From the IMG/VR virus record IMGVR_UViG_3300013426_000021, positions 31,669-63,668 of that record: a DNA stretch of 32,000 nt. One strand, given 5' to 3'. Shown piece after piece: positions 1 through 31,101 of the stretch; the stretch's first letter is position 1, and each line of letters opens with the position of its first letter. A program made the translations under genes and the position numbers. This DNA is from a virus. Under the pieces are notes generated by a model. That model saw only the letters and a list, made by a program, of their open reading frames with translations, ran no database searches and was not told the DNA's origin.

Positions 1-1851
1 TTCAGTGGCCTTCTCGCGCTCAACCTGATTGAGCCCCATGGTGTAGCCTTTGGCGTACATATCCCAGACTGGATCATCCGGCGGGCACATGGCGAGCAGT
101 TCGTTAACAGAGGGGAGGGGGATATTGGCGGCCTTGTAGGCGGCGGTGTTGATGTTGACGACGGTGACGGAAAGAAGATCGTTTTTTAGATATCCGTATC
201 GATCCGCTGTCGCCCCGTCGATAAAAGCGGCATAAATAGTTCCCTTCTTGCCGGTTTTGCTATTGATACGATAAAGCCCAATTTCCCGGCGGATATCCTG
301 ATCGGTCAGAAGATAGGAGCATGGGCTGGGGGAGATGGAATCGACCATGCCAAGATATTTATTGGACATGCGCAGCTGCTCATGATACTCCTTGGGCACG
401 TAATCGAACGGATCGATGGCTTCGCGGTCTTCATCGTCTTCGGCGTATTTTACATCAAGCTCATACTTTTTCAAGCTGTCAGAGATGGCGTTAGCCGTTT
501 CGAAGGCGACGTTGGTAGAACGGCAATACATCTTCCAGGCGGAAAGCCGTTTGAGCGTGCCAAAGGCGACCATCTGCGCGCTATGCCACTCGCCCATGAC
601 CTCGGCCTGCGCTTTTTCAAACACCTCAACGTTGCCGCAGTTCAAATCCAAATCCGGCATCTGACCGGTGCTCAGGCGCTCTTTGGAAATAAACCGGTCG
701 GGGTACATGGTGACGGGCATCTTCAAGCGATCAACGGAGGAGAAGCCGAGAAGCATATTCGTCAAAAAAGATACACCCGACCCCCTTCCAGATTGGGTTA
801 ACACCCCGCCTTCCCGCTTGGCAGTATCGACAACGCGGTTATCAATAAGAAAATAATCCGAAGTGTTGGTACCGGTAACGGCGTCTGTCTCATACCGGAT
901 CGCTTCTTCGTATTCCGGCCAGCGCTCCTGCGGCACTTCAGCTTTATACTGATCCCACGCCTGATGTACAAGGTCGAGATATTTTTGATTGCGCTCTTCC
1001 TGCGTCATGTCGGGATAAGCCGCGGGGAGCTTGCGGCGTTTACCAAACGAGACATCCTCAAAATCCAGGAAGACGTTTGTGTTTTCCATCGCTTCATTAA
1101 TCTGGGCGACGGACAGAACGCCCTGCGCCTTGAACCTGTCGAGCAAATGCTTTTCAGAGGGATAATCCATATCCCAACCCTCTTCATCTTCATATTTAAG
1201 ATGATGGGACTCAAGCAGCTGATCGCGCAGTTTGGAATCCTCCGGGTAAATGAAATGGGAATCGGTTGCGGCAATGAGCGGGATGTTATACTTGCGATAA
1301 AGATCGAGCACGAGCCGGTTGACATCCTTCTGCTTATCGACGTTATGCGCCTGAACCTCGAGCATGAAGCTGCCGCGGAAATGATCGTTCAAGAGCGTAA
1401 CGAGCCGTTCGGCCTCCTCCGCGCCGTACTTCCAAATACCGCCGACGCAGGCTGTGGTAACGAATACATCCTTCGGATCGAGGGCCATGAGCAGATCCAG
1501 ATCGACGCGGGGGCGATAGTAATAGCCGGTGATATTCGCTTCGGAGAGCGCATAATTCAAATCGCCGACGCCTTTGCGCGTCTTCGCTGCCAGAATGAGA
1601 TGGCAGTTGGATTTGTCTTTTTCGAAGCGGTCCTTGACGAAATAGGCTTCGGTAACATAGCGCCACTTCAGGCCATACTTTTCAGCTAGCTCGGCGCACT
1701 CCCAATAGTTGCCCTGCGTGCCATGGTTACAGGAGGAAAGAACCGTCTGGTTCAGTTCGACGGCGCGCCTGGCGTAATCCTCCATGGTGGCGACGCTGTC
1801 GGCAAGCATGATATTGGAGATGTGATCATGTTTATGATAATTGACGTACAT
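1..1851 (-). CDS. dnaE: DnaE-type DNA polymerase III alpha-like replicase, N-terminal 617 codons (C-terminus lies beyond window start)
   Basis: Frame is open from ATG at 1851 (GGAGGT RBS at 1855-1860) to position 1. It is absent from the ORF track because there is no stop in the window. Hand translation gives MYVNYHKHDHISN (PHP-type His/Asp motif), TGQMPDLDLNCG and YGYLKNDLLSVTVVNI, which resemble the DnaE PDIDxDF and GLLKMDFLGL motifs. Confidence 0.8.
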   Translation of the reverse strand, partial: MYVNYHKHDHISNIMLADSVATMEDYARRAVELNQTVLSSCNHGTQGNYWECAELAEKYGLKWRYVTEAYFVKDRFEKDKSNCHLILAAKTRKGVGDLNYALSEANITGYYYRPRVDLDLLMALDPKDVFVTTACVGGIWKYGAEEAERLVTLLNDHFRGSFMLEVQAHNVDKQKDVNRLVLDLYRKYNIPLIAATDSHFIYPEDSKLRDQLLESHHLKYEDEEGWDMDYPSEKHLLDRFKAQGVLSVAQINEAMENTNVFLDFEDVSFGKRRKLPAAYPDMTQEERNQKYLDLVHQAWDQYKAEVPQERWPEYEEAIRYETDAVTGTNTSDYFLIDNRVVDTAKREGGVLTQSGRGSGVSFLTNMLLGFSSVDRLKMPVTMYPDRFISKERLSTGQMPDLDLNCGNVEVFEKAQAEVMGEWHSAQMVAFGTLKRLSAWKMYCRSTNVAFETANAISDSLKKYELDVKYAEDDEDREAIDPFDYVPKEYHEQLRMSNKYLGMVDSISPSPCSYLLTDQDIRREIGLYRINSKTGKKGTIYAAFIDGATADRYGYLKNDLLSVTVVNINTAAYKAANIPLPSVNELLAMCPPDDPVWDMYAKGYTMGLNQVEREKATE

Positions 1852-1927: not shown

Positions 1928-2833
1928 ATGGTAAAACGATTTGCGGCAGTTGCGCTGAGCATTATGCTTCTGCTTTGCGGCATCGCAAACGCGGAAACGC
2001 TGAAGATGCTGGACACGGGGGACGAAGTGCTTGCGCTGAAAAAGGCGCTGATGGCGGCGGGATATCTGGAAGCGACAGAAGAAACGACGAACGTATTCGA
2101 CAAGGCGACAAAGAACGCCATCGAGGAGCTGCAGAAGGATTTTGAGCTGGAGGAAACGGGAATTGCAACGCCGGAAATACAGGTGATCTGTACGCTGTTG
2201 GGAAAACTTACGGAAACGAAATCAACCGCCGGACAAGAGGAAGCAGATGCCGACATGGTAGTTATGCCGGATGTTTACGGCATAACAGCAGAAGACGCAG
2301 CAGAAGCATTGAAAAAGCTTGGCCTCTATGTTATTTTTACGGAAAGATATGACGACTCGCAAGAAGGAACGGTGTGCTATACCGGTTGTAAACCCGGAGA
2401 GAAACTAAAAAAAGGAAGCAAGGTAATTGTGCGCGTTAGCAAGGGGCCTCGCAGGATTGAATCCAAAGCCAGCACCATTACCTGGTGGCACGTGAAGGGG
2501 TCTAATAGTGATGATTACGAATTTGAAAATCCTTACATTTACGAAGATACGCTCATCATCAAACTTGACGTGACACTCAACTCTGAATACAGCCTGCGTT
2601 GGCGGGGATATGGCACAGCCTGCATTACGGACAGATTTGATAAGACCGTTCCGATAGAGGTAAAGTATGAAAACGAGCAAATCAAAAAGGGCGAAACACA
2701 AGCAGTCACCCTAAGAATCCCTCTGAGAGACCTCGACGTTAAGAAGCCGACAACCTTATCTGTCGAGCTTCAGCTATACCGCGGTAAACAAACCCCGACG
2801 CAAATCCGTCTGGATTTCACAATGACATGGTAA
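1928..2833 (+). CDS. secreted protein with PG_binding_1-like domain, PASTA domain and an unassigned beta-rich C-terminal domain
   Basis: N-terminal signal peptide MVKRFAAVALSIMLLLCGIANA|ET. LDTGDEVLALKKALMAAGYL...ETGIATPE matches a peptidoglycan-binding repeat. VVMPDVYGITAEDAAEALKKLGLYV...GSKVIVRVSKG matches PASTA. AAAGGA RBS, TAA stop. Opposite strand to the backbone. Confidence 0.8.
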   Translation: MVKRFAAVALSIMLLLCGIANAETLKMLDTGDEVLALKKALMAAGYLEATEETTNVFDKATKNAIEELQKDFELEETGIATPEIQVICTLLGKLTETKSTAGQEEADADMVVMPDVYGITAEDAAEALKKLGLYVIFTERYDDSQEGTVCYTGCKPGEKLKKGSKVIVRVSKGPRRIESKASTITWWHVKGSNSDDYEFENPYIYEDTLIIKLDVTLNSEYSLRWRGYGTACITDRFDKTVPIEVKYENEQIKKGETQAVTLRIPLRDLDVKKPTTLSVELQLYRGKQTPTQIRLDFTMTW

Positions 2834-2858
2834 ATGAAAGCACAGCACAAAATGACCA

Positions 2859-2893
2859 TTGACGTTTTGCGCTCCGGCGATGTATGATATAAA
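2859..2893 (+). promoter_or_regulatory. sigma-A type promoter of small gene P1
   Basis: TTGACG (2859-2864), 18-nt spacer, then TATGAT (2883-2888), overlapping TGATATAAA (2885-2893). The homologous box sits upstream of paralogue P2. Confidence 0.55.
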
Positions 2894-2937
2894 TGATATC
2901 CGAGGTAATATTCAGTCCCTCCCAAAGGAGAATGAAT

Positions 2938-3183
2938 ATGAAAAAAGGTATCATTATCACGCTCGCGCTTGTTACATTTCTTGTAGCTGTTTTCAGCTTT
3001 GACATTCCGGCAATATCCGCGCTGGGTATTGCTTAGGCGCTGGAAACATTCCTGCGCAAGTGGGATGGCGCAAGTACAGCCTGTTTGATCGTAAGCCTTT
3101 TAGGAATGTACTCTTCTCTGTTTGGATGGATCGGCGTCGCCCTTGCTGCGCTTGATCTATACCAGACATAGAGGAAACGATGA
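2938..3183 (+). CDS. small 2-3 TM membrane protein P1 (holin-like size), readable only if TAG at 3034 and 3169 is translated
   Basis: GGAG RBS 7 nt before ATG 2938. Product: MKKGIIITLALVTFLVAVFSFDIPAISALGIA-TAG-ALETFLRKWDGASTACLIVSLLGMYSSLFGWIGVALAALDLYQT-TAG-RKR-TGA. The segment after the first TAG is conserved in frame with P2. A terminator follows. Confidence 0.6.
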
Positions 3184-3197
3184 AACAGGCGGAGAAG

Positions 3198-3224
3198 AAG
3201 CCCCCCACGGGGCTTTTTCTTTTA
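3198..3224 (+). terminator. rho-independent terminator after P1
   Basis: Stem AAGCCCC/GGGGCTT (7 bp, loop CCAC) followed by a TTTTTCTTTT run. Confidence 0.7.
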
Positions 3225-3247
3225 TGGGCTGGAATAAACAGACAGAA

Positions 3248-3258
3248 TATGATATACT
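3248..3258 (+). promoter_or_regulatory. extended -10 promoter of small gene P2
   Basis: TATGATATACT (TG-a-TATACT). The 5' leader GATATCCGAG..AATATT.AGTCCCTCC..AAAGGAGAAT is conserved with the P1 leader. Confidence 0.5.
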
Positions 3259-3309
3259 ATCATTGATATCCGAGAAAATATTTAGTCCCTCCCCGAAAGG
3301 AGAATAAAT

Positions 3310-3567
3310 ATGAACAAAGATATCAAAACCAAAGCTGCGCTGTTCTTTGCCGCAGTTAACGTACTGCTGGCGATTGCCGGTCTGTTCTTCCCGCTCGCGT
3401 CGTTATAGACGCTGGCCTGGGCGCTGGCTGGCTTCCTGCAAAAACAGGACGTCGAAACCGCATGCTGTCTCATTGTGGGCCTTTAGGGGATGAGCTTCTC
3501 CGCCTTTGGATGGGTCGGACTCGGCATTGCCGTTGCCGCCCTGATACTGGCGCGGAAAGCGCAATGA
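3310..3567 (+). CDS. small membrane protein P2, paralogue of P1, with in-frame TAG at 3406 and 3484
   Basis: Same RBS spacing as P1. Product: MNKDIKTKAALFFAAVNVLLAIAGLFFPLASL-TAG-TLAWALAGFLQKQDVETACCLIVGL-TAG-GMSFSAFGWVGLGIAVAALILARKAQ-TGA. The first TAG is codon 33, as in P1. Many synonymous differences versus P1 occur downstream of the TAG. Confidence 0.6.
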
Positions 3568-3577
3568 GACGAAGACG

Positions 3578-3609
3578 GAGCCTTGCTACAAGCAGGGCTC
3601 TTTCTTTTT
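3578..3609 (+). terminator. rho-independent terminator after P2
   Basis: Stem GAGCCTTGC/GCAGGGCTC (9 bp with one G-U) followed by TTTCTTTTT. Confidence 0.7.
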
Positions 3610-3642
3610 GCCAATGGCCATTTTGTGCCGTGCTTTACAGAG

Positions 3643-4842
3643 TTAATTTTTCAATTCGACGAGATACTTGACGGTCGTCTGGCATTCCTGATAGACGATG
3701 ATCTCGTCGTTGCGGAGCATTGCCCCTTCATGCGCATGCAGACAGTTCGCGCCAGGACATGCGGCCTGAAGTTTTTCATAGTCGAAGGAGTTATAAGCGC
3801 CGGAGAAAGAATAAACGTCGTACGGTTTGCCGTAGGCGACCTCATACAGTCCCATAAAAGCGCTGTTCTCACTGCCTTTAGCCCAATAAGAACCGGAAAG
3901 GGAAGTGTAACCAAGCGACTTGCGCGCCTTTGTGGCGAAATAGATACCGTAACCGAACATCTTGCCGGTGATAACCGCGTTGGTGGGCTTGAGAACAAGG
4001 CCGCCGGTGAGGATGGACCACCAGTTTTCATTGCGGCTGCCATGCCAGAGCAGCTTGGTAGCGATATGAGCAGGCTCGACATAATTATCGAACGCCTGCT
4101 GGGTACGAAGGTTCCGAACCCGCCACGCCTGACGGAATTTATCGGCGCAGGAACCGAGGCAGGACTTGATTTTAATGATGTCTTCGGGCGTTGCTTCTTC
4201 AAAGACAAGACCGTTCGCCTCGAGGACGGTCTGCTGTACTGGAGCAGTATCGACAACTTTTACCGGCTGCGGGACATAGACCTGACCGCGCATAATATCC
4301 AGCAGATCCTGTTCTCGGCGGATAATATCGCCGAACTGGTCGACCGAAGTGGCCAAATGAGAGCGGACGCTGGCCATGCGGCGGGGAATAATGCCGAACA
4401 ATTCCGACAACAGCAGATTAAAATCATTCAAGCTGCGTTTATCAACCAGCGCGTTCAGCATGAGCTGCGCTTCATCGACCATCGCCATAGTGACCTTGTT
4501 GGACGAGATGGTGTAGTTCTCCGCAACCGCCTGCCGCGCCATTTCTCTCAGCCGGCGGACAATTTCAGCGATGGGTTTCTGCAGGATCGGCCGATAATCA
4601 TCTGTAACAGGCTGTACTTCAATCAGGTCTCGCACAAGCCATGTACGATCAACATACCCTTTGGAAAGCTTTTCGTTGTATTTCTTCTCCCAGTCCCGGA
4701 GGGAGTAAGTCCGACGCTGCGGGCTTGCCCCCACACGACCGTAAGCCGCTTCCCAGACGGAGCCCATCGGGGTCATATCATAATATTTATTATTGTTGGC
4801 GTCGGCGGATATTTTCACCAGCCGCCGCGGTGTGTATTCCAT
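3643..4842 (-). CDS. WGR-domain poly/mono(ADP-ribose) polymerase (PARP1-3-like H-Y-E catalytic domain)
   Basis: N-terminus NNKYYDMTPMGSVWEAAYGRVGAS...KGY matches the WGR domain. A helical middle region follows. The catalytic domain has LLWHGSRNENWWSILTGGL (His), KMFGYGIYFATKARKS (Tyr) and NDEIIVYQECQTTVKYLVELK (Glu). ATG 4842 overlaps the upstream TGA (TGATG). Confidence 0.85.
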   Translation of the reverse strand: MEYTPRRLVKISADANNNKYYDMTPMGSVWEAAYGRVGASPQRRTYSLRDWEKKYNEKLSKGYVDRTWLVRDLIEVQPVTDDYRPILQKPIAEIVRRLREMARQAVAENYTISSNKVTMAMVDEAQLMLNALVDKRSLNDFNLLLSELFGIIPRRMASVRSHLATSVDQFGDIIRREQDLLDIMRGQVYVPQPVKVVDTAPVQQTVLEANGLVFEEATPEDIIKIKSCLGSCADKFRQAWRVRNLRTQQAFDNYVEPAHIATKLLWHGSRNENWWSILTGGLVLKPTNAVITGKMFGYGIYFATKARKSLGYTSLSGSYWAKGSENSAFMGLYEVAYGKPYDVYSFSGAYNSFDYEKLQAACPGANCLHAHEGAMLRNDEIIVYQECQTTVKYLVELKN

Positions 4843-5297
4843 CACAGCGTATACACCACGATATCGACGCGCGTATCATCAAACGTTTCGAGGATCAGCT
4901 CACGAACATCATCCCAGTTCAAACGATCGAGCCCGCAGCCGATGCGCGGCATAGCGAGACGGGTGATTCCACGCTCCTGAATATGCCGGCGGAGATCGAA
5001 CAGAGCGGCTCCAAGCGTTTCAAGCGTGGGTTTTTCATAGCACCGTTCTTTGGTGACGAGGTTATAAACATCCAGCACGGGGAGCGCGCAAGGCCCCCAG
5101 CCTTCAAAATCATACTCGCCGTACATCTGGCGAAGCTTTTCCTTCATATCATACTGGGTATCAATCTGCCTGGCGACGCCAGCGCCCAGAGCAAAATCCG
5201 CGCTGATGCAATGCACAAGCGCCCAGCCGCGGGGCGCGCTAAGCAGATCGCCTTTGATTTCAGAGAATGTCAATTTCGGATTACAGGTTTCGCACAT
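4842..5297 (-). CDS. TARG1/OARD1-like macrodomain ADP-ribosyl hydrolase
   Basis: 151 aa. KGDLL...LVHCISADFALGAGVA, LVTKERCYEKPTLETL, MPRIGCGLDRLNWDDV and C-terminal IVVYTL are nearly collinear with my recollection of human TARG1. GGAGG RBS. Confidence 0.85.
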   Translation of the reverse strand: MCETCNPKLTFSEIKGDLLSAPRGWALVHCISADFALGAGVARQIDTQYDMKEKLRQMYGEYDFEGWGPCALPVLDVYNLVTKERCYEKPTLETLGAALFDLRRHIQERGITRLAMPRIGCGLDRLNWDDVRELILETFDDTRVDIVVYTL

Positions 5298-5312
5298 ATC
5301 AATTTCCTCCTG

Positions 5313-6623
5313 TCAATAATAGCTGACTTCTTTGCCGGGCTCACGCAGATCTTTGAAAACCGGAAAACGGAGCGACTCGACGCCCGATTTATCCTGCGTG
5401 ACCTCAAAATACTGCACCGTAACGACCCGACCAATAAATTGGGACGGATTCGCCCAGACCTCGCGGCGGAAAGAATCCGTCATGCCGGAGCCGACACGGA
5501 CGGGATTGCCCTTAAAATCCACCACCAATGCGCCGAGCGTGCCCTTGAAGCGGCCGCCGCCTTCTTCGACACCGGTAATTGCAAGATCGCAATCCTGCAT
5601 GGCTTTGACCTTAAGCAAATTCCGGGTTCGCTTGAACTCATAGGGCGCGTCGAGCAGGTTGATCATCACGCCTTCATGACTGAGGCCGCGCTGAATTTCA
5701 AGATGGCGAAGGATTTCATTTACATCGCCGCCGACATAGAGGACGGGAACGGCCTTGATATGCTCGACGTCATGGACGATCGCTTCCAGCTCCTGCCGGC
5801 GAAGATAATACGGCGTGGTGCAGTCGTGGTTGAGAAAAACGCTGTAATCAACGATATCGAACGCGTTGAACACAATGCCGCGCTTTTCACCATCCCGGCG
5901 GACAATCTGCACGGTGTGCTTATACTGCTCTTTGCTGGGGATATTCTCCCTGTCTGCGATGAGCAGCTCGCCGTCAAGCACAAAGCCAAGCGCGCCGCCG
6001 TCAGTAAGCGTGAGAATATCTTCTTCCAATTCGACAAGCCCTTCGATAGGCTGACCCTGCCGGGTATAGAAACGGGGCGGCTTGCCCTTCTCGGCCACGC
6101 ACTGACAGCGAACGCCGTCCAGCTTTTCGGTAAGCGCGAACCGTCTGCCTTCAACCGCTTCGGGATGCTCGAAATATTTCTCGGCCAGCATACATTCATA
6201 CACGGGAATAACCGTGCGGCCAAGAACCTTGTTGACCGTCTTAGCAGAAATACCGAGCGGGATATCCTTACAGAGGAATCGAACAAGGAACTCGCGCAAG
6301 GCCGGGTCGGCTATATTGGCGAGCGTATACTGCAGTCTGGCGAGGACCTGCATATCTGCGGCGCGCAGGCCGGACAAATATTCGCACATGGTAAAAAGAT
6401 CATCCCAATATGAAGCCAGCGTGATATTCAAATTTTTCTCAAGCGACCTGCGCTGAACATGAAAGACGACCATAGGATCGAGCAGAAGCTTCAGGGCGGA
6501 AAACGCCGCAGGACTCTGGGCGCAGGCCAGAATTTCCGGCTCTTTCGCCTTGCCTCGCGCGGTTTGAATCGCATCGAAGCAAGGCCTGATTTCGTGAAGC
6601 TGAGATTCAAGAGTGAAAGACAT
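5313..6623 (-). CDS. lig: ATP-dependent DNA ligase
   Basis: Motif I EKLDGVR, plus LDGELL, FNAFDI, EGVMIN and LLKVK, with an OB-fold-like C-terminus. Start set at MSFTLES (ATG 6623, AAAGGAA RBS). The 100-codon upstream extension in the ORF track has no coding character. Confidence 0.85.
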   Translation of the reverse strand: MSFTLESQLHEIRPCFDAIQTARGKAKEPEILACAQSPAAFSALKLLLDPMVVFHVQRRSLEKNLNITLASYWDDLFTMCEYLSGLRAADMQVLARLQYTLANIADPALREFLVRFLCKDIPLGISAKTVNKVLGRTVIPVYECMLAEKYFEHPEAVEGRRFALTEKLDGVRCQCVAEKGKPPRFYTRQGQPIEGLVELEEDILTLTDGGALGFVLDGELLIADRENIPSKEQYKHTVQIVRRDGEKRGIVFNAFDIVDYSVFLNHDCTTPYYLRRQELEAIVHDVEHIKAVPVLYVGGDVNEILRHLEIQRGLSHEGVMINLLDAPYEFKRTRNLLKVKAMQDCDLAITGVEEGGGRFKGTLGALVVDFKGNPVRVGSGMTDSFRREVWANPSQFIGRVVTVQYFEVTQDKSGVESLRFPVFKDLREPGKEVSYY

Positions 6624-6925
6624 GATGTATTCCTTTCTTGATTGATGTATAATTGCGTTATGCGGCCAGAGGCGAGGGAACCCATTTCGCACGATACGTT
6701 GAAGGGAAGGAGGCCACAGCTTCAAATGGAGAAGATAGTAACAATTTAGAACATTATTCTGATTGTGCTTCAGCTGATTGCAGCTGCGTTCGAGTTGGCT
6801 AAACCACAGGACACCGCTGTGACCATCCATGTTGAGGGCAATAACAACAACGTTATTGTCATTGTCAACACTGGGATGAAGTAACAACCGCCAGTGATGA
6901 CGCGCCGTGTTACTTCTCCGGCGCA

Positions 6926-6958
6926 TAACGCAAAAGGAATTGCGCGCGAATCGCGCAA
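6926..6958 (-). terminator. rho-independent terminator after the PAPS-reductase gene
   Basis: On the minus strand: TTGCGCG-attcg-CGCGCAA hairpin (6940-6958) followed by TTCCTTTTG. Confidence 0.55.
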
Positions 6959-6963
6959 GGAAA

Positions 6964-7824
6964 TTACACAGATAAATACCAGGCCATTACCTCTTCAGGC
7001 GAAGACCACAGATCGTTCGGCAAACCACGTTCGTCCCGCGCTTTCAACATCCGGTCGAACGCGCGAAGATACGCTTCTTCATATTTCGGATATCGTTCAA
7101 AATCGCGCTGGCGATTTTTTACGGAGCCCATCGGGCAACCGATACAGCCGAGCCGGCCATAGCCTTCATCATACAGACGGCAATGCGGAACCTGAACCAC
7201 ATCGTTCAGGAAAGACCAGACTTCCTCTGTCGACCAATCGATGATGGGGTTGACGAGCGTTTTCATGGTACGATAACAAACTTCCACCATACGGCGGGAC
7301 GAATCGTTATCATCGTTCAGGATGATACCGCCCTTCGAGCCTTCATGGAAATCGATGCCGCGCGTTAACGCAATCCGTTTCGCCCTTGCGGGCTGCTGGA
7401 GGATTTCCACAGAGCCGTGCATGGCGGCGCGGCGAGGGCTTTCCGCCCAGCGGACGCCCGTTATTGTAACACGCCCCTACCCGCCGGACTCTTTCAGATC
7501 GGCACAGCAATACCGCGCGCTCCGGGACGGCGGCTTGCCAACGGCGGGAATCAAATTCCACATGGTGATCGGGTTTCCGGCCGCGTTATACGGGATTTCC
7601 CGCGCTACGTCAGGATAATGATCCCGAATGAAACGAACCAGTTCAGGCGGGTCCACGCTTGTGACGCGATAATGCGCATCAAATTTAACGCCGGCCATTT
7701 CGCACAGATGATAAACGCATTGAGAATCTTTGCCGCCGGAGAAGGCGACATAGTACCCCTCTTCGGGCTCGAAGGTACGCAGCTTCAGGAGCGCCGCGTC
7801 GATTTTTCTCTGATCGATCATCAT
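6964..7824 (-). CDS. PAPS reductase/PP-loop family protein (phage DNA-modification-type), single reading frame interrupted by in-frame TAG at 7477-7479
   Basis: Track ORFs 7477..7878 and 6964..7422 are in the same frame. PP-loop AFSGGKDS, then ...RYCCADLKESGG-TAG-GRVTITGVRWAESPRRA...CIGCPMG. The conserved GxRxxES motif lies directly after the TAG. Start ATGATG at 7824 overlaps the upstream TGA. Confidence 0.7.
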
Positions 7825-8693
7825 CTCTCCAATATCTCCTCGCAGAGGGGGCAGGAATTCAGCACGCCGCAGATCCACCGGCAGAAATACTTATCTTTAT
7901 GCGGCCTCCAATCAAACTCAAAGAGAATTTTCTCGATCGTATCGACGACCCAGGCCATGGCGGCGTTATATGCGGCCGCGTCGAACGGTTCATCAATGAA
8001 GGTGCCATCCCGGAACATGTTGAAGCGCAGCCGGGCGGGGAAAACGCCGAATTTCTGCTTGACAAACGCGGCGTAAACATAGAGCTGCTTGCGATAAGTA
8101 TCCAGTTCCTTTTTCATGGAGCTCATGGACTTGGATTTATGATCGATGACCTCAATTTCGCCGGTTTCGCGATTTTTGAGCACCAAGTCGGCGATTCCAA
8201 CGAAAGGATAACCGCCGATTTCAATTTCGAACCGCTCTTCAGCGGCCAGAATATCATATTGATCACCGAAGCCGGAGAAAGTCTCGAAATATTCAAGGCC
8301 AGCGTCGTAATATTTCTGCGGCATGCCTTTGGGGAACGGGGGGAAGGAGTGCTGAAGCGCCTGATCATATCCTTCCTCATACTCGGACGCCATAAGAAAG
8401 TCGGGGAGCTCGCCCTTCGCCCATTTTTCCAGAATTTCATGACAGTGCGTACCGTATTCGGCGAAGGCGTTATTCTCATTGGGGACGCGATCGATATACT
8501 GGAGTTTATAAGCCAGAGGACATTGTTCAAAGGTTGCCAGACGGGAAAAAGACCACTTGGTTTCGGGAGGAATAGCGGCATCACCTCGATGGATATGGTA
8601 TAATGGCTCTGCGCAGACAACGCCGAGCCAAGCCTTTATAAAAAGGAAGGTGTAACGACTGGACACGGAGCGCCCTGCAAGGGGCGAAGGCAC
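7821..8693 (-). CDS. Cas4/RecB-like PD-(D/E)xK exonuclease with Fe-S cysteine cluster
   Basis: WSFSRLATFEQCPLAYKLQYI, IADLVL...EVIDHKS (D..E.K) and C-terminal CRWICGVLNSCPLC. There is no in-frame ATG near the N-terminus. GTG at 8693 or 8666 are the only candidate starts, so the start is uncertain. Confidence 0.75.
   Translation of the reverse strand: MPSPLAGRSVSSRYTFLFIKAWLGVVCAEPLYHIHRGDAAIPPETKWSFSRLATFEQCPLAYKLQYIDRVPNENNAFAEYGTHCHEILEKWAKGELPDFLMASEYEEGYDQALQHSFPPFPKGMPQKYYDAGLEYFETFSGFGDQYDILAAEERFEIEIGGYPFVGIADLVLKNRETGEIEVIDHKSKSMSSMKKELDTYRKQLYVYAAFVKQKFGVFPARLRFNMFRDGTFIDEPFDAAAYNAAMAWVVDTIEKILFEFDWRPHKDKYFCRWICGVLNSCPLCEEILER
8596..8604 (+). promoter_or_regulatory. candidate extended -10 promoter (TGGTATAAT) facing the copy-A element
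   Basis: ATGGTATAAT is identical to the box at 25543-25551. It lies inside the 5' end of the Cas4-like ORF, about 190 nt upstream of the GGAGG+ATG at 8782/8799. Confidence 0.35.
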
Positions 8694-8834
8694 AGTCTGA
8701 ACTTACGGGCGACTGTAAGAGCCGCAAGGCCCCGCAGACAACAAGGCGGGTAACAAATTGCGAAAGCCGGTGGGAGAATTTGGAGGTTTATCGAAAGAAT
8801 GTCAATTTTAATTTCATAGGCGTTGTCCTATTGG

Positions 8835-8963
8835 TTGCAAGTCATAGGAAACTATGACGGATTGGTTCACTTGTTCCCGACCGCCGCGGCGACCCCGCCG
8901 GGCAGATTGTTGCTGATGGCAATCGCTATCGCGCTTGTCGTCTTTATGGTACTGTACGACCGA
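8835..8963 (+). repeat. copy A of a ~129-nt conserved element (candidate small hydrophobic ORF and/or structured RNA)
   Basis: 91/129 identity (hand alignment) to 26808..26936. Contains hairpin GTCATAG-GAAA-CTATGAC (8841-8858). Plus-frame peptide LQVIGNYDGLVHLFPTAAATPPGRLLLMAIAIALVVFMVLYDR. Preceded by GGAGG (8782-8786), ATG 8799 and an in-frame TAG at 8817. Confidence 0.6.
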
Positions 8964-9626: not shown

Positions 9627-9894
9627 AAGTATCAAGTCCTTTCATTCGAATATCACGGAGGTGACCACGGAAAGCGTATTCGGAAACATGGAGCAGGGTT
9701 TTAAGCTGGTCGCGGGTATATTCCCCACCAAAGCCCTTGTAGAGATGGCGGATAAACCACTCATAAACATAAGAGCGGCACCCGTCCGGGTCGCGATAAT
9801 ATTTGCATGCGCTACAGTTTCTGCTATGCCGGTCGAAGCAACCGAGCATCAATGTGGAGACGACCCCACGATCCCATCTGCGATACCTAGCCAT
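9616..9894 (-). CDS. small Cys-rich hypothetical protein
   Basis: GGAGGG RBS before ATG 9894. 92 aa with CFDRHSRNCSACKYYRDPDGC. Overlaps both neighbours. Confidence 0.55.
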   Translation of the reverse strand: MARYRRWDRGVVSTLMLGCFDRHSRNCSACKYYRDPDGCRSYVYEWFIRHLYKGFGGEYTRDQLKTLLHVSEYAFRGHLRDIRMKGLDTYDE

Positions 9895-10451
9895 TGTTTT
9901 CCCTCCATTAATTTTGTCCGAATTCGCGCGCCCGTTTCCGCGACGCGCTGCTGAACGCGTTGGCGGCTGAGCCCGAGCTCGTCACCGAGCGACTGACAGG
10001 TTTTGCCGGCTATATGATAACGCAGATATAGCCGTGCCGCATCCTCGCCGACAATGGATTTCATATAAGAAACGATGCGCTGCGCATCCATAAAGGCGTC
10101 TGCATCGGTGATACAGCGCTGATCGCCGGGGAGATAATAGTCGATCATCATATCGGAAAGAAAACCGACGCCACTCTCTGGTTTACGGGACTGCGTGTTA
10201 TTGTGCGCGTTAAGATGGGAGAGCTCGCTGCGAACCTGATGCCAGAGATAAGTCGACCAGGCGCATTTGCCGGGGACATAGCTCTGCACGGCGTAAACCG
10301 CAACAAGATGGACGAGCCCAAGCGAATCATCGAACCCCAAATCCCGCCGGTAGCGTGCGAGCTTTGAAGCATAGAGGACAAGCAGCCCATAATTCCGCTC
10401 GAGGAAGGCGCGCTGCGCATCAGTGAGCGGCGGACGAATTTTCTTTCTCAT
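9849..10451 (-). CDS. sigma-70 family (ECF-sized, regions 2 and 4) RNA polymerase sigma factor
   Basis: 200 aa. Region-2-like YGLLVLYASKL...GLVHLVAVYAV. Region-4 HTH CQSLGDELGLSRQRVQQRVAETGARIR. TAATG overlap with the primase-helicase stop. Confidence 0.7.
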   Translation of the reverse strand: MRKKIRPPLTDAQRAFLERNYGLLVLYASKLARYRRDLGFDDSLGLVHLVAVYAVQSYVPGKCAWSTYLWHQVRSELSHLNAHNNTQSRKPESGVGFLSDMMIDYYLPGDQRCITDADAFMDAQRIVSYMKSIVGEDAARLYLRYHIAGKTCQSLGDELGLSRQRVQQRVAETGARIRTKLMEGKQWLGIADGIVGSSPH

Positions 10452-12280
10452 TAGAACGGCAATGTCTGAGCCAGCATGATGCCATACTCCGGCATGGAAT
10501 CGGCGCGCGGGTCAGGCTTCTGCACTCCCTCCTTATTCCAGCTGAAATTATTCAGATCGCCTTTATCGGCCTGATAGATGCGGCGGCTATCGCCGCAATA
10601 ACAGCACTCGATGAGTTTTTCGATGCCGCCTTCGCGGTTTTTGATGATGCGCAAATTCGGGCGCTCAACAACGATGGCGGAATCTGCAAGGTTGACGATC
10701 TGTGAAGAACCGGCGACATCAAATTTCCCAAATTGTTCGCCCGCTTTACGCTTGCGCGGGTGACAAACGGCCAGCACATGGACTGAAAAACGAACGGCAA
10801 ACTTTTTGAGCGCGCCGATAAACTTGCCCTGCGCACGGGTTTCCTCATCGACGTCAGAGAGAGAAGTCATCAGGTTATCGACAAGAAAAAGCTTGCAGCC
10901 ATAGCGGCGAACCGCCATGGTAAACACTTCGAGAATGGATTCCGCCTGATTATGCTCGAAGATTTCGTTATTATCGAAGAGAAAAAACTTGCCGCCGTAA
11001 TATTCCGAAAGCCGCTGCTGAACCTGCCAGCTGAGAGAAGGCACCTGTTTGCTGCGGACGGAATCATATTTCAGACCGATATAATCGGAACCGGCGCACT
11101 GGAGGTTGATCCATTCCTGAAATTTTTCTTTACGGAGCTCCCCCGAATAAGCGCAGACATTGTGTCCTTGCTCGATTGCATTGAGAAGAAGCAAGCCCGT
11201 TAGCGTGGATTTTCCGCCGCCCGCGTCACCTGTAAAAACCGTAAGCCCGCCCTCAACCAAGCCACCAATCGCCGCGTCCAACGCGGGGATCATCGTCTTG
11301 ATTCGGGGAACGGTCGTCGGGTCATACGGGGTGACGGTGCCGAGATCGAGCAAACCCTTGATGGGAACCTGTCGGGCGTTCTCGACCATATCGACCAGTT
11401 CGAATGGACCCAACGCAAAGAGAATTTCGTTCGCATCCTTACATTCCTTGCCGCGGTCTTCCCAGTAGGGATAATCCTCAACGATAGCGCACCGCGACTC
11501 GTCCAGCCGCTTGGCCACCTGCTGAACCATCTTGCGGCCGGGATCATCGTTATCACCAAAGAGAACGATTCGCTTGAATTTTTCCAGCCAGTCCCAGCAG
11601 TTTTCAATCCAGCTGAAATCCTCGCAGCCGGAGGGGACGGAAACGACGTTGGTGACGCCGGCCTCATAAAGCGACATGGCGTCCAGCTGGCCTTCCGTGA
11701 TGACGAGCGGCTGGGCGAAGGAGCACATATCCATCCCGAAGAGAACAGCCTTTGTGCCGGGGGCGCGCCACTCCTTTCCTTTTTCACCCTCTTTCGGCTT
11801 CCACGGCCGGCGGAACTTCTCAAAGACATTGACGCCGTTTTCATAAAAAGGGAAGACGATCATGCCGGCGTCGTCGGACTGAATTTTGAAGGCGTCGACC
11901 GTTTCGCGGCTGATGCAGCGCTTCTCAAAATACTGATAGATCGCTTCCGTGGGCGGGTTGAGATGCGTATCGGGGAGCTTCCACGCTTTAGGCTTTTGTT
12001 TGGCGAGGCTGGAGGAGCGAGCGGAGCGGGCGGCATTGGTATCGCCGAAGAATTCGGCCAGCTCGTCAAAGTGCCCGCGCTTGCCGCAGGTGCCACGCTT
12101 GCAGACAAACACTCCTTTATCGATGGAGAGCGCGAAGGTTTCCTTATCCCCGTTATCCCCGCCGTGACAGAAGGGGCAATACTCCGGGACGATTTCTTCG
12201 CCCCCATCCTGCTTGGGTTTCACCTTAAAATTGCCGAGATACTGATCCGCGAACCGGATCATCTGATCTCTGTTATTCAT
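10451..12280 (-). CDS. bifunctional primase-helicase (zinc finger + Toprim + DnaB/RecA-like ATPase)
   Basis: CPFCHGG...CKRGTCGKRGHF zinc motif. Toprim ITEGQLDAMSL...LFGDNDDPGR. Walker A TGDAGGGKST, Walker B KLFLVDNL. Confidence 0.85.
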   Translation of the reverse strand: MNNRDQMIRFADQYLGNFKVKPKQDGGEEIVPEYCPFCHGGDNGDKETFALSIDKGVFVCKRGTCGKRGHFDELAEFFGDTNAARSARSSSLAKQKPKAWKLPDTHLNPPTEAIYQYFEKRCISRETVDAFKIQSDDAGMIVFPFYENGVNVFEKFRRPWKPKEGEKGKEWRAPGTKAVLFGMDMCSFAQPLVITEGQLDAMSLYEAGVTNVVSVPSGCEDFSWIENCWDWLEKFKRIVLFGDNDDPGRKMVQQVAKRLDESRCAIVEDYPYWEDRGKECKDANEILFALGPFELVDMVENARQVPIKGLLDLGTVTPYDPTTVPRIKTMIPALDAAIGGLVEGGLTVFTGDAGGGKSTLTGLLLLNAIEQGHNVCAYSGELRKEKFQEWINLQCAGSDYIGLKYDSVRSKQVPSLSWQVQQRLSEYYGGKFFLFDNNEIFEHNQAESILEVFTMAVRRYGCKLFLVDNLMTSLSDVDEETRAQGKFIGALKKFAVRFSVHVLAVCHPRKRKAGEQFGKFDVAGSSQIVNLADSAIVVERPNLRIIKNREGGIEKLIECCYCGDSRRIYQADKGDLNNFSWNKEGVQKPDPRADSMPEYGIMLAQTLPF

Positions 12281-22286: not shown

Positions 22287-22613
22287 TCAATATGAGCCGC
22301 TGCGGCGGCAATCAGGTTTTAGCCGTTCCTCCAATTCCTTCAGTCGTTTTTCAAGAGCGATTCGTTTCTCAATTTCCAGCTCCATACAGCGTTCATGGTA
22401 TTCATACGGAACGAAGCCGGCGCGGACGGAGGCCCTGTAATGCGCGCCGAGCGCAGTTTCATCCGGCGGGGAATCCCAGCCGCAATAGTTGCAGTGATAG
22501 CAATAACCGCTCCGACCATATTCGGAATAGCCCAGCGGACGCAGGGACATCGCTTCGCCGCAGCCGGGGCAGAGGATTTTTCGGGTTCCATTCAGCTGGT
22601 CACCTCCTTTCAA
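22287..22613 (-). CDS. zinc-ribbon protein with C-terminal coiled coil
   Basis: CPGCGE...CYHCNYCGW, then EIEKRIALEKRLKELEERL. Start uncertain: TTG 22613, or a rare CTG after the AAAGGAGGTG RBS. Confidence 0.55.
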   Translation of the reverse strand: MKGGDQLNGTRKILCPGCGEAMSLRPLGYSEYGRSGYCYHCNYCGWDSPPDETALGAHYRASVRAGFVPYEYHERCMELEIEKRIALEKRLKELEERLKPDCRRSGSY

Positions 22614-22826
22614 TCAGCCGATGATCAGATCTTCATTAGCGCGGGCAAGATATTCTTCAAGGAATTCCTCGTTGGAGCAGGGAGCGACGGCGGCGTGCGT
22701 ACGTTCGCGGGTTTCGTCGTCCATCGCCGCGACGACAGCGCCCCAGAGGTTCTGCCTGGCAATTTCGAGGAATGCTTCGCAGACAGACAGGAAAGTGTGA
22801 CCGTTATCCAAGCTGATTTGTTTCAT
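22614..22826 (-). CDS. hypothetical 70-aa protein
   Basis: Start at MKQISLDNG (ATG 22826, AAGGAGG RBS, ATGA overlap with the upstream stop). Confidence 0.55.
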   Translation of the reverse strand: MKQISLDNGHTFLSVCEAFLEIARQNLWGAVVAAMDDETRERTHAAVAPCSNEEFLEEYLARANEDLIIG

Positions 22827-23185: not shown

Positions 23186-23471
23186 CGCGCAGCCCCTTTA
23201 CCATATCCTTCACGGCTTTGGTGTTCCGCAGCTTTTCGGCCAGCAACGACGCGGTCGCCGCCACAATTTCCGCCTTATGGTCTTCAAGGAATTTCTCAGT
23301 GCTATGTTCGACGAGGACTGTCAGCGCGGATTTCGGATTACGGTAGCGGTAATACTCGGCGCAGAGCGCATCCTCAATTTGACCGTAAAGCTTATCCCGG
23401 AGCGCGTTGACCACGCTCTTTTGAACAGCCTCATCCTCAAGAACAACGCCGACGGTTACAAGATGTTCCAT
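23163..23471 (-). CDS. hypothetical protein
   Basis: Start at MEHLVTV (TAATG overlap with the upstream stop). Helical composition. Confidence 0.5.
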   Translation of the reverse strand: MEHLVTVGVVLEDEAVQKSVVNALRDKLYGQIEDALCAEYYRYRNPKSALTVLVEHSTEKFLEDHKAEIVAATASLLAEKLRNTKAVKDMVKGLRDEHANDA

Positions 23472-24616
23472 TACGCGCACACCTCCTCGTTATTCTGTTC
23501 GATTCTGGGAAGGATTCCCTTCTGCTTCAGCAGGTCGTAGAGGAAGAGCCGGCCTTTCTGCGTCCAGTAGGTGTGGACGTTGCAGGCCCCGTCGTCGTTG
23601 AGATAGGTCTTGGTCTGCGTATATCCCTCCGGGGCGTACTTCTGATACAGCAGCCACACGCCGCCGCTCTTATACTGCACGCCAAGTTCGCGCAGCTTCT
23701 GGTTCATTGCCTGCGCGGAGAACCCGTAGTCCTTGGCAATCTGCACGATGGGCATGACGGACTGATTTTGCAGGATGAGATCATAGTAGCTGACCTTGGG
23801 CTGCATTTCCGCGATCTGCTGGGACTGGACGGCGTTCTGCGTGGCCAGCTGAGCGGCGCGGGCGCGTTCCTCTTTGAGATCCTGCAGAACCTTAATGAAC
23901 AGATCAGGGTTGGCGAGCAGCTCATCGGCGGCGTAAAGGCCATGCTTGCGGACGGAGGGGATAACCTCATGGGTGATCCAGCGCCGGAAGGCTTTGGCCT
24001 CAGGTTTGTTCGATTCGATAATCAAAGAGTAAAGCCCGGATTCATTAACGCACCACGCGAAAAGGGTATTATTTGCGGTGCGTATTCCTCTGAACACCCT
24101 TTTGTCTTCATCATCAATTCGTTCCATTGCCTGCGACGTGTCAGAAAGCGAAAGGATTCTGCAAGCATCCGCCGCTACAAACCATGGGTCATTGTTTTCA
24201 TCTCGGTGGACGCGAACAGAACCGAACTCTGCACTATTGTAAACCGACAGTTCAGACGAAGCGCAAACCGTTTCCTGCTGATAGATATCGTCAAGGCTCC
24301 ACCGTAGACCAAGCGCCGGGAAAACAGAAGTAGAAATCCAATTCTTGAAGCGTTTTGCAATTTCTTTTCGGCTGCCACAAACGATAACAATCAGCCCGTT
24401 TTTGTTGACAAAGTTGAGCGTCTGCTTTCCACCGGATGTTTCAATTTCATACTTCCGTTTTTCTTCATCATCAAGACGGTTGATAACGCTGGAAACATTA
24501 CCCAGACCAATACACCTACACACATCGGCGGCCACAAACCATGGTTCGCCGTTCTGCAGTACCGTTCTCACGTCCCCGAACTGTTCGTTCTTAAAAAGCT
24601 GAATCTGATTTTCCAT
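23471..24616 (-). CDS. antirepressor-type protein with two tandem Bro-N domains and a KilAC/ANT C-terminal domain
   Basis: Bro-N motifs QLFKNEQFGDVRTV...WFVAADVCRCIGL and AEFGSVRVHRD..WFVAADACRILSL. KAFRRWITHEVIPSVRKHG. C-terminal IAKDYGFSAQAMNQKLRELGV. Confidence 0.8.
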   Translation of the reverse strand: MENQIQLFKNEQFGDVRTVLQNGEPWFVAADVCRCIGLGNVSSVINRLDDEEKRKYEIETSGGKQTLNFVNKNGLIVIVCGSRKEIAKRFKNWISTSVFPALGLRWSLDDIYQQETVCASSELSVYNSAEFGSVRVHRDENNDPWFVAADACRILSLSDTSQAMERIDDEDKRVFRGIRTANNTLFAWCVNESGLYSLIIESNKPEAKAFRRWITHEVIPSVRKHGLYAADELLANPDLFIKVLQDLKEERARAAQLATQNAVQSQQIAEMQPKVSYYDLILQNQSVMPIVQIAKDYGFSAQAMNQKLRELGVQYKSGGVWLLYQKYAPEGYTQTKTYLNDDGACNVHTYWTQKGRLFLYDLLKQKGILPRIEQNNEEVCA

Positions 24617-25973: not shown

Positions 25974-26276
25974 ATGGATACCCTTAAGCTTACGAAAAAA
26001 GAGCATCGCGATCTGGTTCGATTGAAGCGCGGCGAGAAGCTTACGCAAGAAGAAGGTTTCCCGCTTTATCAAAAAGGACTTGCAACTCGTAAATTTCTGA
26101 ATTTTCAGTGCGGCACCCCAACCGAGGTGCAGTACTATATCAGCGAGGAAGGGGTTCAATATTTTCGCGATAGATTTGAGAGGATGAGATCTTCCTGGGG
26201 GAGGGCGGCAATCGCAGTTGCCACAATCGCCGGCGGATTAGTTGCCGTAATTGAATTTTTATGCAAGTCCGAATGA
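25974..26276 (+). CDS. small protein with C-terminal TM anchor
   Basis: GAGGTGG RBS. 100 aa with a basic/helical N-terminus and AAIAVATIAGGLVAVIEFL near the C-terminus. TGA stop. Confidence 0.65.
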   Translation: MDTLKLTKKEHRDLVRLKRGEKLTQEEGFPLYQKGLATRKFLNFQCGTPTEVQYYISEEGVQYFRDRFERMRSSWGRAAIAVATIAGGLVAVIEFLCKSE

Positions 26277-26692
26277 GCGATCAGATGGATTGCGAGCGAT
26301 CCAAAGGAGACGATAAGCGCGACAATCAGAAGTGCCATAGCGCTGCGCCATGTGGTTTCGTCCTTGCTTGGGATGCAATAGATGCTGTTTTTTTTGAAGA
26401 GCGCGGGGACCACGTCGTTGCCGAGCCAGTCGCCGTATGCTGTGGCTTTGGGAGATGTGCTGAACGCTGTGAGCCGAAGCGCGTTGCTGAGCGAGACGCA
26501 CGGCCTGTCTTCCCGCCAGACAATACCAGCCGGCGCACAATGGTTTTTCACGGCGGCTTCCGGATTCTCATATCCGAGCGAGTGCGCGATATTCAGCCCG
26601 GAAAACCACCACACGCCGTTTGTTTTTATCGCCCAGAGGTTGCCGAAGATTGGGTCGTCGAAAAATTTCGTATCGTCGATATCAAGTTTCAT
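26156..26692 (-). CDS. Bro-N-like domain protein with C-terminal TM segment
   Basis: FGNLWAIKTNGVWWFSGLNIAHSLGYENP (Bro-N-like). TM AMALLIVALIVSFGSLAIHLIA. The last ~40 codons overlap the convergent 25974 gene, so the true 3' end is uncertain. Confidence 0.6.
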   Translation of the reverse strand: MKLDIDDTKFFDDPIFGNLWAIKTNGVWWFSGLNIAHSLGYENPEAAVKNHCAPAGIVWREDRPCVSLSNALRLTAFSTSPKATAYGDWLGNDVVPALFKKNSIYCIPSKDETTWRSAMALLIVALIVSFGSLAIHLIAHSDLHKNSITATNPPAIVATAIAALPQEDLILSNLSRKY

Positions 26693-26979: not shown

Positions 26980-27738
26980 TTATGCGCCGGCCTCCAATCG
27001 TTCCATGAGATATTTCTGCCCTTTGCCGGTGACGAGCGTGGTTGTCCGGATGGTTTCCTCAAAGCCGGTGAAGACCTTGCTTTCCTTGACAGCGAACACG
27101 CCCTGATCGACATACCGCTGATACGGTTTATTATCCGGCATGAGGTATTTGTTATCGCGCAGCCACTTGAAGAGCCGGTTGCGGCCGATGGGAATGCCGC
27201 TGTTGGCGGCGACCTTGGCGAAATCGCCGAGCAGGATGGTGGCGTCGCTGGCGGAGATGGACTTGCCGAAATGAGTATAGGGGCGATCTTCCTCGATCTG
27301 CGCGCTGAGCGCGGCAATCCTTGCTTCGCGCTGCTTGAGCTTCTCGGTTGTGATAATGAGCGCCTTGGCGACGAGCTCATCGTCTGTCATGTTTTCTTCG
27401 CCGGCGATGTAGCCGCCCGTTTTGCGGATGGCGGGAAGTATTTCGTCGAACACCCAGCGTTCGAATTTTTCTGCATCCGGGAGTTTACTGTGGGTGATGA
27501 GGCGGTAAACGTCGCCTTCGGGAATGAAAATCATGTCGATTTGTTTATCCGCGGCCTGCGGGTGAGGTATACTGCGTTTTGCCGTATACCGGCAATGCGC
27601 GGCGATCGCGTCATTAGGACGGGCATATCCCAGCGCCTTCGCTACATCGCTGCCGCAGAACAAGAATTTCCCGGCTTCCTCGATAATCCTGACGTTTCCA
27701 AACTGTTCGTTGTTAAAAATTTGCGTCTGGTTTTCCAT
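26980..27738 (-). CDS. Bro-N + KilAC/ANT antirepressor-type protein
   Basis: QIFNNEQFGNVRIIEEAGKFLFCGSDVAKALGY, EKFERWVFDEILPAIRKTGGY and C-terminal LGDFAKVAANSGIPIGRNRLFKWLRD. GAGGAGG RBS. Confidence 0.8.
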   Translation of the reverse strand: MENQTQIFNNEQFGNVRIIEEAGKFLFCGSDVAKALGYARPNDAIAAHCRYTAKRSIPHPQAADKQIDMIFIPEGDVYRLITHSKLPDAEKFERWVFDEILPAIRKTGGYIAGEENMTDDELVAKALIITTEKLKQREARIAALSAQIEEDRPYTHFGKSISASDATILLGDFAKVAANSGIPIGRNRLFKWLRDNKYLMPDNKPYQRYVDQGVFAVKESKVFTGFEETIRTTTLVTGKGQKYLMERLEAGA

Positions 27739-30750: not shown

Positions 30751-31101
30751 CTACGCCTCCCATTTCACCTTCTTCGGCTCCGGCATAAACATCACCGCGT
30801 AAACCTTCTCGATCATCTCGCCGCCGGCGAAGTATTTATCCCACACATCGTCGCGGTTCTCTCCCTCGCCGTGCAGCTTGAAGAGCGCGCCGGGGAAACG
30901 CTCGCTGAGCTCAGCCATATCGTCCTCATGGCCGTACCAGCGCCATTCTCCATTCGGCTCCGCGTTAAAGACCTGATCCTGCGGGTCGTAATAGAAGTCG
31001 CCCAGCGGCATATTCAGCTCCTCGATAGCCGCTTCTATCTTTTCAACATCCTGCGCCGCGACATGCAGCGCCTCCATAGAATACGAAGTCAGATAGCCCA
31101 T
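30751..31101 (-). CDS. acid-rich hypothetical protein; the only gene in the window ending in TAG
   Basis: GGAGGA RBS. 116 aa. Stop TAG at 30753-30751 is followed in frame by 12 sense codons (VGTPTYEARRAE) and TAA at 30714-30712. Confidence 0.6.
   Translation of the reverse strand: MGYLTSYSMEALHVAAQDVEKIEAAIEELNMPLGDFYYDPQDQVFNAEPNGEWRWYGHEDDMAELSERFPGALFKLHGEGENRDDVWDKYFAGGEMIEKVYAVMFMPEPKKVKWEA

Follow-up and report, generated by a model that had tools for sequence, protein, structure and literature searches.

In several groups of gut phages, TAG is recoded from stop to glutamine by suppressor transfer RNAs (tRNAs) of the phage, a state known as code 15 and described for crAss-like, Lak, Garnet/Topaz and phAss-1 phages (bioRxiv 10.1101/2021.08.26.457843; PMC9523058; PMC10607447). 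The phAss-1 report gives TAG in 41 open reading frames (ORFs) (PMC10607447), and Garnet/Topaz prophages appear almost wholly fragmented when the standard code is applied (bioRxiv 10.1101/2021.08.26.457843). Borges et al. proposed that a standard-code phage that gains a suppressor tRNA represents a step before the code change; their example is that of the TGA suppressors of Agate phages, and the route that they propose begins at low G+C (bioRxiv 10.1101/2021.08.26.457843). Here, we analyze a 32,000-nucleotide (nt) stretch of phage DNA, positions 31,669 to 63,668 of IMG/VR virus record IMGVR_UViG_3300013426_000021 (hereafter, "the window"), in which a gene of the PAPS_reduct (PP-loop) family is interrupted by a single in-frame TAG. 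We consider it probable that this codon, number 116 of the gene, is translated by means of the phage's own amber suppressor tRNA and that the gene is intact.

Classical amber mutants of phages such as T4 and lambda are rescued by amber suppressors such as supE/glnV in Escherichia coli. The interrupted gene resembles them in that, after one change from CAG to TAG in a phage gene, synthesis of the protein depends on a tRNA that has the anticodon CUA. It differs from them in that the suppressor is located on the phage itself and in that the amber alleles are natural and widespread in metagenomes.

The phage, which derives from gut metagenomes, has a genome of approximately 118 kb with 53% G+C. 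Walking out from the window by exact-protein look-ups covered about 84 kb of it. The surveyed sequence shares with the code-15 gut phages the presence of in-frame TAGs in conserved genes, a phage-encoded tRNA with the anticodon CUA, here designated tRNA(CUA), and the alternation of TAG with Gln codons in relatives. Further points of similarity are that the host is likely to belong to Bacillota and that an integrase and other early genes are free of in-frame TAG. Unlike in those phages, the TAGs are very sparse, with three fixed sites and possibly a fourth in the surveyed sequence, TAG still terminates several real genes, and the G+C content is not low. In contrast to the published model, in which recoded stops belong to structural and lysis genes, the TAGs reside in genes for DNA metabolism and regulators. 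The combination of a mostly standard-code genome with a suppressor tRNA, under which in-frame stops that would otherwise be lethal can begin to build up, corresponds to the intermediate of Borges et al., and TAG/CAG polymorphism among near-identical strains looks like such accumulation in progress. Compared with their Agate example, the suppressor is one for TAG, the G+C content is higher, and one of the sites, in a RemA-like gene, is old and conserved. In spite of this old site, the postulated intermediate stage appears to be the description that fits best. The case is one of sparse amber suppression in a mostly standard-code phage and a variant of known phage TAG recoding.

The interrupted PAPS_reduct gene

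Coordinates refer to the window unless a locus (L number) is named, and those of the main features are collected in Table 1. Translation of 7824..6964 (minus strand) revealed one internal stop, the TAG at 7479..7477, and no frameshifts. The two ORFs that are called on either side of it, 7477..7878 and 6964..7422 (both minus strand), share one frame, as the first-pass annotation had stated, and the sequence around codon 116 reads CCADLKESGG-TAG-GRVTITGVRWAESPRRA. The same annotation had placed the PP-loop motif upstream of the TAG and the GVRWAES and cysteine motifs downstream of it, and the coordinates of all three agree with this arrangement. The outer end that it gave for the gene, 7824, coincides with the true start, as indicated by an ATGA overlap with the upstream PD-(D/E)XK exonuclease gene. 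This overlap may couple the two genes translationally.

The joined protein behaves as a single unit in profile searches. Pfam PF01507 (PAPS_reduct) matched once across the TAG, covering residues 25 to 231 and profile positions 3 to 173 of 175 (E = 1.3e-14). At 55.1 bits versus a cut-off of 22.5, this match exceeds the gathering score and places the protein in the domain family. PHROG 424 also matched across the TAG (residues 10 to 267, E = 1.1e-34), and the SGGKDS motif conforms to the SGGxDS pattern of PP-loop proteins. In its PF01507 signature, its SGGKDS motif and its C-terminal cysteine motif, the protein resembles PAPS reductase/CysH, APS reductase and DndC-type PP-loop enzymes. Unlike CysH and APS reductases, it reached none of the NCBIfam equivalog cut-offs (TIGR00434, TIGR02057, TIGR02055 and NF002537; 22 to 32 bits versus 154 to 254), the score being 27.7 bits versus 165 for cysH TIGR00434 and 22.5 versus 254 for PAPS_reductase TIGR02057, and its gene sits in a replication/recombination module, between exonuclease and ligase genes. 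The NCBIfam matches were confined to the C-terminal 50 or so residues, and sequence matches to PDB entries were likewise partial. On the evidence of these profiles, "PAPS reductase" is to be taken as a family label rather than as a demonstrated activity.

Among 5.8 billion proteins searched, full-length homologues number in the thousands; they are 285 to 326 amino acids (aa) long, and all of them are single chains. The closest were 91%, 83% and 75% identical and aligned end to end. The first-pass annotation had suggested that such an alignment be used to find the residue that corresponds to the TAG. The two closest relatives have Gln there and the third has Val, and the column is variable beyond them, with K, E, D, N, T and R further out. 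Codon 116 is CAG in the DNA of the closest intact relatives (91% identical in amino acids, 85% in nucleotides).

Selective constraint was compared on both sides of the TAG. In a family alignment of 20 sequences, the window copy has kept all family-invariant columns downstream of the TAG. Relative to the copy at locus L001, the ratio of nonsynonymous to synonymous divergence (dN/dS; Nei-Gojobori) was 0.051 upstream and 0.055 downstream, with a synonymous divergence (dS) of 0.76 to 0.94. According to the first-pass annotation, a sense codon in close relatives, accompanied by further frameshifts or relaxed constraint downstream in this copy, would indicate a true pseudogene. The relatives do have the sense codon, but neither a frameshift nor a relaxation of constraint was found. 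A pairwise dN/dS of 0.055 downstream would leave room for only a very short neutral period. The comparison therefore speaks against a decayed pseudogene, although on its own it is compatible with a very recent one.

The TAG allele is not restricted to a single assembly. In the assembly collection, 43 indexed blocks contain the exact 115-aa N-terminal fragment and 75 the exact 152-aa C-terminal fragment. TAG was present in 15 of the 15 loci of the lineage that were read, which originate from 13 samples and many of which lie on contigs of 112 to 123 kb. The window sequence is identical to that of contig ERZ27300206:k119_58561 (117,027 bp).

A phage tRNA(CUA) and further in-frame TAGs

The phage carries an array of tRNA genes between the endolysin-like PG_binding_1 gene and the terminase/structural module, approximately 42 kb from the PAPS_reduct gene, and one of them is the gene for tRNA(CUA) (Table 1). 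The Rfam tRNA model scored 39.9 bits on tRNA(CUA) versus a gathering score of 29, and minimum-free-energy folding gives a cloverleaf. The tRNA fits the general tRNA model, its D-loop being 9 nt long and containing GG, its variable loop 5 nt long and its T-loop TTCGAAC. Its anticodon loop, UUCUAAU, presumably differs from that of E. coli tRNA-Gln(CUG) only in having A instead of G at position 36, which is also the change in supE. The Met-CAT tRNA of the array has a C1xA72 mismatch and is initiator-like. Contig ERZ808259 NODE_28 (118,556 bp), which also has the TAG-bearing gene, matches the array colinearly at 99.4% identity. Neither blastn against GenBank phages nor an exact search of the metagenome contig collection returned a match to tRNA(CUA). 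Full-length identity to relatives of the PG_binding_1 gene in metagenome contigs did not exceed 49% (55% in a single partial match), and no tRNA(CUA) was found beside these relatives.

We infer that tRNA(CUA) reads codon 116, probably with partial efficiency, and that the residue inserted is most likely glutamine. If the suppressor tRNA were lacking, translation would stop after 115 residues, and the product would have the PP-loop but neither GVRWAES nor the cysteine motif. Production of the full-length enzyme would thus require expression and charging of the phage tRNA.

Two more conserved genes on the window's contig are interrupted by a fixed in-frame TAG. In the RemA-like gene, PF04025 matched residues 6 to 78 of the joined protein and thereby all 73 of its profile positions, and the joined protein aligned across the TAG with the RemA structure 7BM2. 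The same TAG occurs in a diverged lineage (locus L007). Between this lineage and that of the window, dS was 0.7 to 1.3, and dN/dS was 0.06 to 0.07 on both sides of the TAG. All seven RemA-like relatives that passed the E-value cut in the search of 5.8 billion proteins are C-terminal fragments, and none extends across the TAG position. The codon directly after the TAG is the first one in four of them, and the other three start at an internal Met further downstream. Calls of 61 aa and 91 aa for the C-terminal part might be mistaken for a real difference, but this was rejected, because the DNA is identical and only the calling of the start codon differs. The second gene encodes a RuvC-like Holliday-junction resolvase. 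Its joined protein was matched by PF02075 over residues 14 to 158 and by PHROG 159 as well, and gene callers split it into ORFs of 58 aa and 107 aa.

In two further genes, those for a PD-(D/E)XK exonuclease and a Sigma70_r4-like protein, TAG alternates with CAG among near-identical strains. In-frame TAGs in conserved genes are hence fixed in three cases (PAPS_reduct, RemA-like and RuvC-like) and polymorphic in two. The supported genes of the surveyed sequence were found to contain neither frameshifts nor in-frame TAA or TGA codons. A codon-usage scan of the roughly 84 kb flagged the three fixed TAGs as having coding sequence on both flanks, together with one additional candidate, the possible fourth site at locus L115, for which no family match that would support a longer gene was found. 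At all three sites where close relatives differ, TAG is exchanged for CAG. These TAG and CAG counts are supporting rather than decisive evidence. Because the phage carries a tRNA that would read TAG, and because the same interruption recurs in at least two other conserved genes, the PAPS_reduct gene is most likely intact.

The first-pass annotation had likewise favored decoding over a fresh pseudogene, and it had done so on the grounds that other in-frame TAGs occur in the window. The preference is upheld by evidence from outside the window, namely tRNA(CUA), the RemA-like and RuvC-like TAGs and the TAG/CAG polymorphisms. The premise was mistaken, since the only other in-frame TAG in a supported gene of the window is the terminator at 30753..30751, and no credible second interruption of a real gene was found there. 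Other long TAG-containing ORFs of the window lie on the noncoding plus strand or in alternative frames. Judging genome-wide recoding from the window alone was also rejected, as little ORF length is gained when TAG is read as sense: ORFs of 100 aa or more summed to only about 10% more length, far below the increase with TGA or TAA as sense.

Weighing the explanations

Several findings weigh against translation of codon 116 by the phage tRNA. Reassignment of TAG is not complete, as real genes still end in this codon; besides the terminator in the window, it ends the gene for a 535-aa serine recombinase and several small early genes with SD-TAG-nn-ATG junctions (SD, Shine-Dalgarno). tRNA(CUA) itself is atypical in that positions 13:22 and 31:39 (C.C) are mismatched, and the z-score of its fold reaches only -0.77. 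Pairwise comparison with other tRNAs (52 to 70% identity) pointed to no clear isotype, and its G1-C72 pair and A73 discriminator are, we assume, not typical of bacterial tRNA-Gln. The TAG of the RemA-like gene stands at the position of an Ile in 7BM2, which does not point to glutamine. Colinearity of the array with contig NODE_28 was read to 530 nt short of tRNA(CUA), and about 33 kb of the genome lie outside the survey. Under random single-base nonsense mutation, the probability that five of five stops are TAG is 0.03 to 0.06; CAG to TAG is the commonest nonsense path, and mutation bias alone gives P values of 0.008 to 0.08 for CAG as the origin in three of three cases. The block that contains the TAG gene (6501-10000) is almost invariant among all TAG-bearing strains, so that selection since the mutation arose is not measurable for the PAPS_reduct gene. 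The few known protein variants of its fragments are all nonsynonymous singletons or doubletons.

The chief alternative, which we regard as unlikely, is a recent nonsense pseudogene. A change from CAG to TAG would have knocked out an accessory gene, the allele would have hitchhiked in a near-clonal block, and the downstream part would be intact merely for lack of time. This is in line with the 0 to 1 nt by which the 861-nt gene differs among the 15 TAG-bearing loci, while neighboring blocks are 2 to 10% apart in a mosaic pattern, and with the sense codon in all intact relatives, none of which is more than 91% identical. The ligase/Macro block (4500..6500) differs by 2 to 11% in most strains, and an invariant block of 3.5 kb beside it suggests that the TAG block may have spread recently by recombination. 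The use of TAG as a terminator elsewhere in the genome, the likeliest path of nonsense mutation and the nonsynonymous nature of the few fragment variants can be counted in favor of a pseudogene as well. Against it stands tRNA(CUA) in the same genome, with which a TAG is no clean knockout, and a pseudogene would still be leaky. Two more TAGs split domains on the same contig, and one of these has been kept across a dS of about 1 under the constraint described above. Finally, the absence of in-frame TAA, TGA and frameshifts from all supported genes and the low downstream dN/dS also speak against a pseudogene.

We think it very improbable that the host decodes TAG, through pyrrolysine or an amber suppressor of its own, and that the phage merely mirrors the host code. 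ARAGORN labeled the tRNA with the CTA anticodon as "tRNA-Pyl," and TAG is a rare terminator: of about 116 called genes it ends 9, including the 3 in-frame cases. The label, however, reflects nothing but the anticodon. In tRNA-Pyl, the D-loop is short and lacks GG and the variable loop has 3 nt, whereas the loops of tRNA(CUA) are ordinary and do not show this architecture. No pyl genes were present among the called genes of the roughly 84 kb, and the polymorphic sites alternate with CAG (Gln) and not with AAG (Lys). That the 115-aa N-terminal fragment and a reinitiated C-terminal fragment are made separately and assemble into a split enzyme is scarcely credible, even though every assembly has separate gene calls of 115 aa and 152 aa. 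There is no in-frame ATG, GTG or TTG between the TAG and GVRWAES; the first in-frame start is the ATG at 7422 (residue 135), and a protein beginning there omits the invariant T122-R132 block that includes GVRWAES. A reinitiated fragment is thereby excluded as a functional alternative, and all homologues are single chains. An assembly or sequencing artifact is refuted by the occurrence of the identical TAG in 15 loci that were assembled independently, from 13 samples and with different assemblers.

Provided that the phage tRNA does read codon 116, the TAG may be adaptive or may merely be tolerated given the suppressor. It is possible, though doubtful, that the phage-borne suppressor serves as a translational gate for a few nonstructural genes (PAPS_reduct-like, RuvC-like and RemA-like) while TAG remains a terminator elsewhere, which would constitute a stable "sparse amber regulon" or else mark the first step toward code 15 that can be observed. 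No in-frame TAG was found in the structural and lysis genes of the roughly 84 kb surveyed, and hence no enrichment of recoded stops in late genes. Such a gate would differ from what has been published in a gene pattern opposite to the late-gene model, in a G+C content of 53% and in TAG/CAG polymorphism that is still segregating.

If codon 116 is indeed translated, annotation under the standard code presents the PAPS_reduct gene and at least two other genes of this phage as pairs of fragments, and recoding as sparse as this would be invisible to tools that rely on a genome-wide gain in coding density. The lineage would also offer a natural series for the onset of a code change, comprising CAG relatives, strains polymorphic for TAG and CAG, an old conserved TAG, a phage tRNA(CUA) and TAG terminators, and would show a step that Borges et al. 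proposed largely by inference. As the affected genes are not late genes, they would challenge the view that recoding mainly gates lysis and structural genes.

Genome context and minor observations

All supported genes of the window are on the minus strand, with the exception of the PG_binding_1/PASTA gene at 1928..2833 (plus strand). Stop usage in approximately 38 minus-strand genes of the window was 22 TGA, 14 TAA and 1 TAG. The neighborhood of the PAPS_reduct gene is an early region for replication and recombination and includes genes for DNA polymerase III alpha, a WGR-PARP protein, a Macro-domain protein and an ATP-dependent ligase, as well as for a primase-helicase, a DUF2828 protein, SSB, an AAA_24 protein, a tyrosine integrase and Bro-N/ANT anti-repressors. 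The terminase (562 aa), head-module genes of 528 aa and 393 aa, a 745-aa tail gene and the endolysin-like PG_binding_1 gene are uninterrupted.

Table 1. Positions of the interrupted gene, its motifs, the tRNA genes and other TAG sites
Feature	Position	Strand	Remarks
PAPS_reduct-family (PP-loop) gene, complete	6964..7824	-	286 codons + TAA stop; supported by translation, Pfam, PHROG and full-length homologues
In-frame TAG, codon 116	7477..7479	-	Flanked by conserved G115 and G117; CAG (Gln) in closest intact relatives
PP-loop SGGKDS, residues 29-34	7723..7740	-	Upstream of TAG; invariant in 20-sequence alignment
GVRWAES, residues 123-129	7438..7458	-	7 codons past TAG
GCIGCP cysteine motif, residues 226-231	7132..7149	-	Downstream of TAG; invariant in family
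ATGA start/stop overlap with upstream PD-(D/E)XK exonuclease gene	7821..7824	-	PAPS_reduct start ATG at 7824
tRNA array: Ser-GCT, Met-CAT, Gly-TCC, Thr-TGT, Ala-TGC, CUA-anticodon tRNA	L117/L118 11531..12638	+	ARAGORN
tRNA(CUA), 77 nt, encoded CCA end	L117/L118 12562..12638	+	ARAGORN and Rfam
RemA-like gene with in-frame TAG: 33 aa + TAG + 91 aa	L113 5984..6361	+	Window's contig, ~4.1 kb beyond window position 1
RemA-like gene, same TAG, diverged lineage	L007 19015..19413		
RuvC-like Holliday-junction resolvase gene: 58 aa + TAG + 110 aa	L113 9815..10324	+	Window's contig
PD-(D/E)XK exonuclease gene 7821..8693, CAG codon 111	8361..8363	-	TAG in sister strains L024 and L025
Sigma70_r4-like gene 9849..10451 (200 aa), CAG codon 153	9993..9995	-	TAG in sister strain L017
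Possible fourth in-frame TAG	L115 2657..2655	-	Upstream of 180-aa ORF 2034..2576; positive coding score on both sides
TAG as genuine terminator	30753..30751	-	Gene 30751..31101, PHROG 6306; read-through adds 12 codons only

The terminase is distantly similar to those of Clostridium phage c-st and SPbeta-like phages (28 to 31% aa identity), and no GenBank phage matched 25 kb of the window in a megablast search. In IMG/VR, the best match for NrdD was at 59%. No close relative was found in GTDB representative genomes, where the best match was only 45% identical, the matches being in metagenome-assembled genomes of Bacillota and Lachnospiraceae. An Rfam scan of the window detected no known RNA family, and a tRNA search of the window detected no tRNA.

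Several genes of the replication module vary in structure among strains. DNA polymerase III alpha (1..1851, minus strand, partial in the window) occurs in near-identical strains either in an intein-containing form of 1503 aa (PF14890) or in an intein-less form of 1058 aa (L012-L023), and the window's contig has the intein-less form. The primase-helicase gene (10451..12280, minus strand) carries an insertion with a LAGLIDADG domain in some strains, giving 942-943 aa versus 603-609 aa (L025 244..3072; L026 1763..4594). At L002 9966..12764, the ligase ORF runs into the serine-recombinase ORF to a total of 932 aa, for which an insertion, a fusion or an assembly chimera is possible. At 3643..5297 (minus strand), a gene for a protein of 400 aa with WGR and PARP catalytic domains overlaps a Macro-domain-like gene (151 aa) by 4 nt. 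By their domain content, these two genes would form an ADP-ribosylation writer/eraser-like pair within the replication module.

The region adjacent to this pair, 2834..3642, consists of two tandem cassettes of approximately 370 nt, each with a plus-strand ORF for a hydrophobic peptide of 32 aa (about 2938..3036 and 3310..3408). A 25-nt inverted repeat (2837-2861 and 3612-3636) brackets the cassettes, and one or two copies are present depending on the strain. Three Bro-N/ANT anti-repressor paralogues lie within 4.3 kb, at 23471..24616, 26156..26692 and 26980..27738 (minus strand). A 70-aa ORF at L027 19295..19507, which corresponds to about 22431..22643 of the window (minus strand), has a weak Pfam match to the anti-CRISPR protein AcrIC5.

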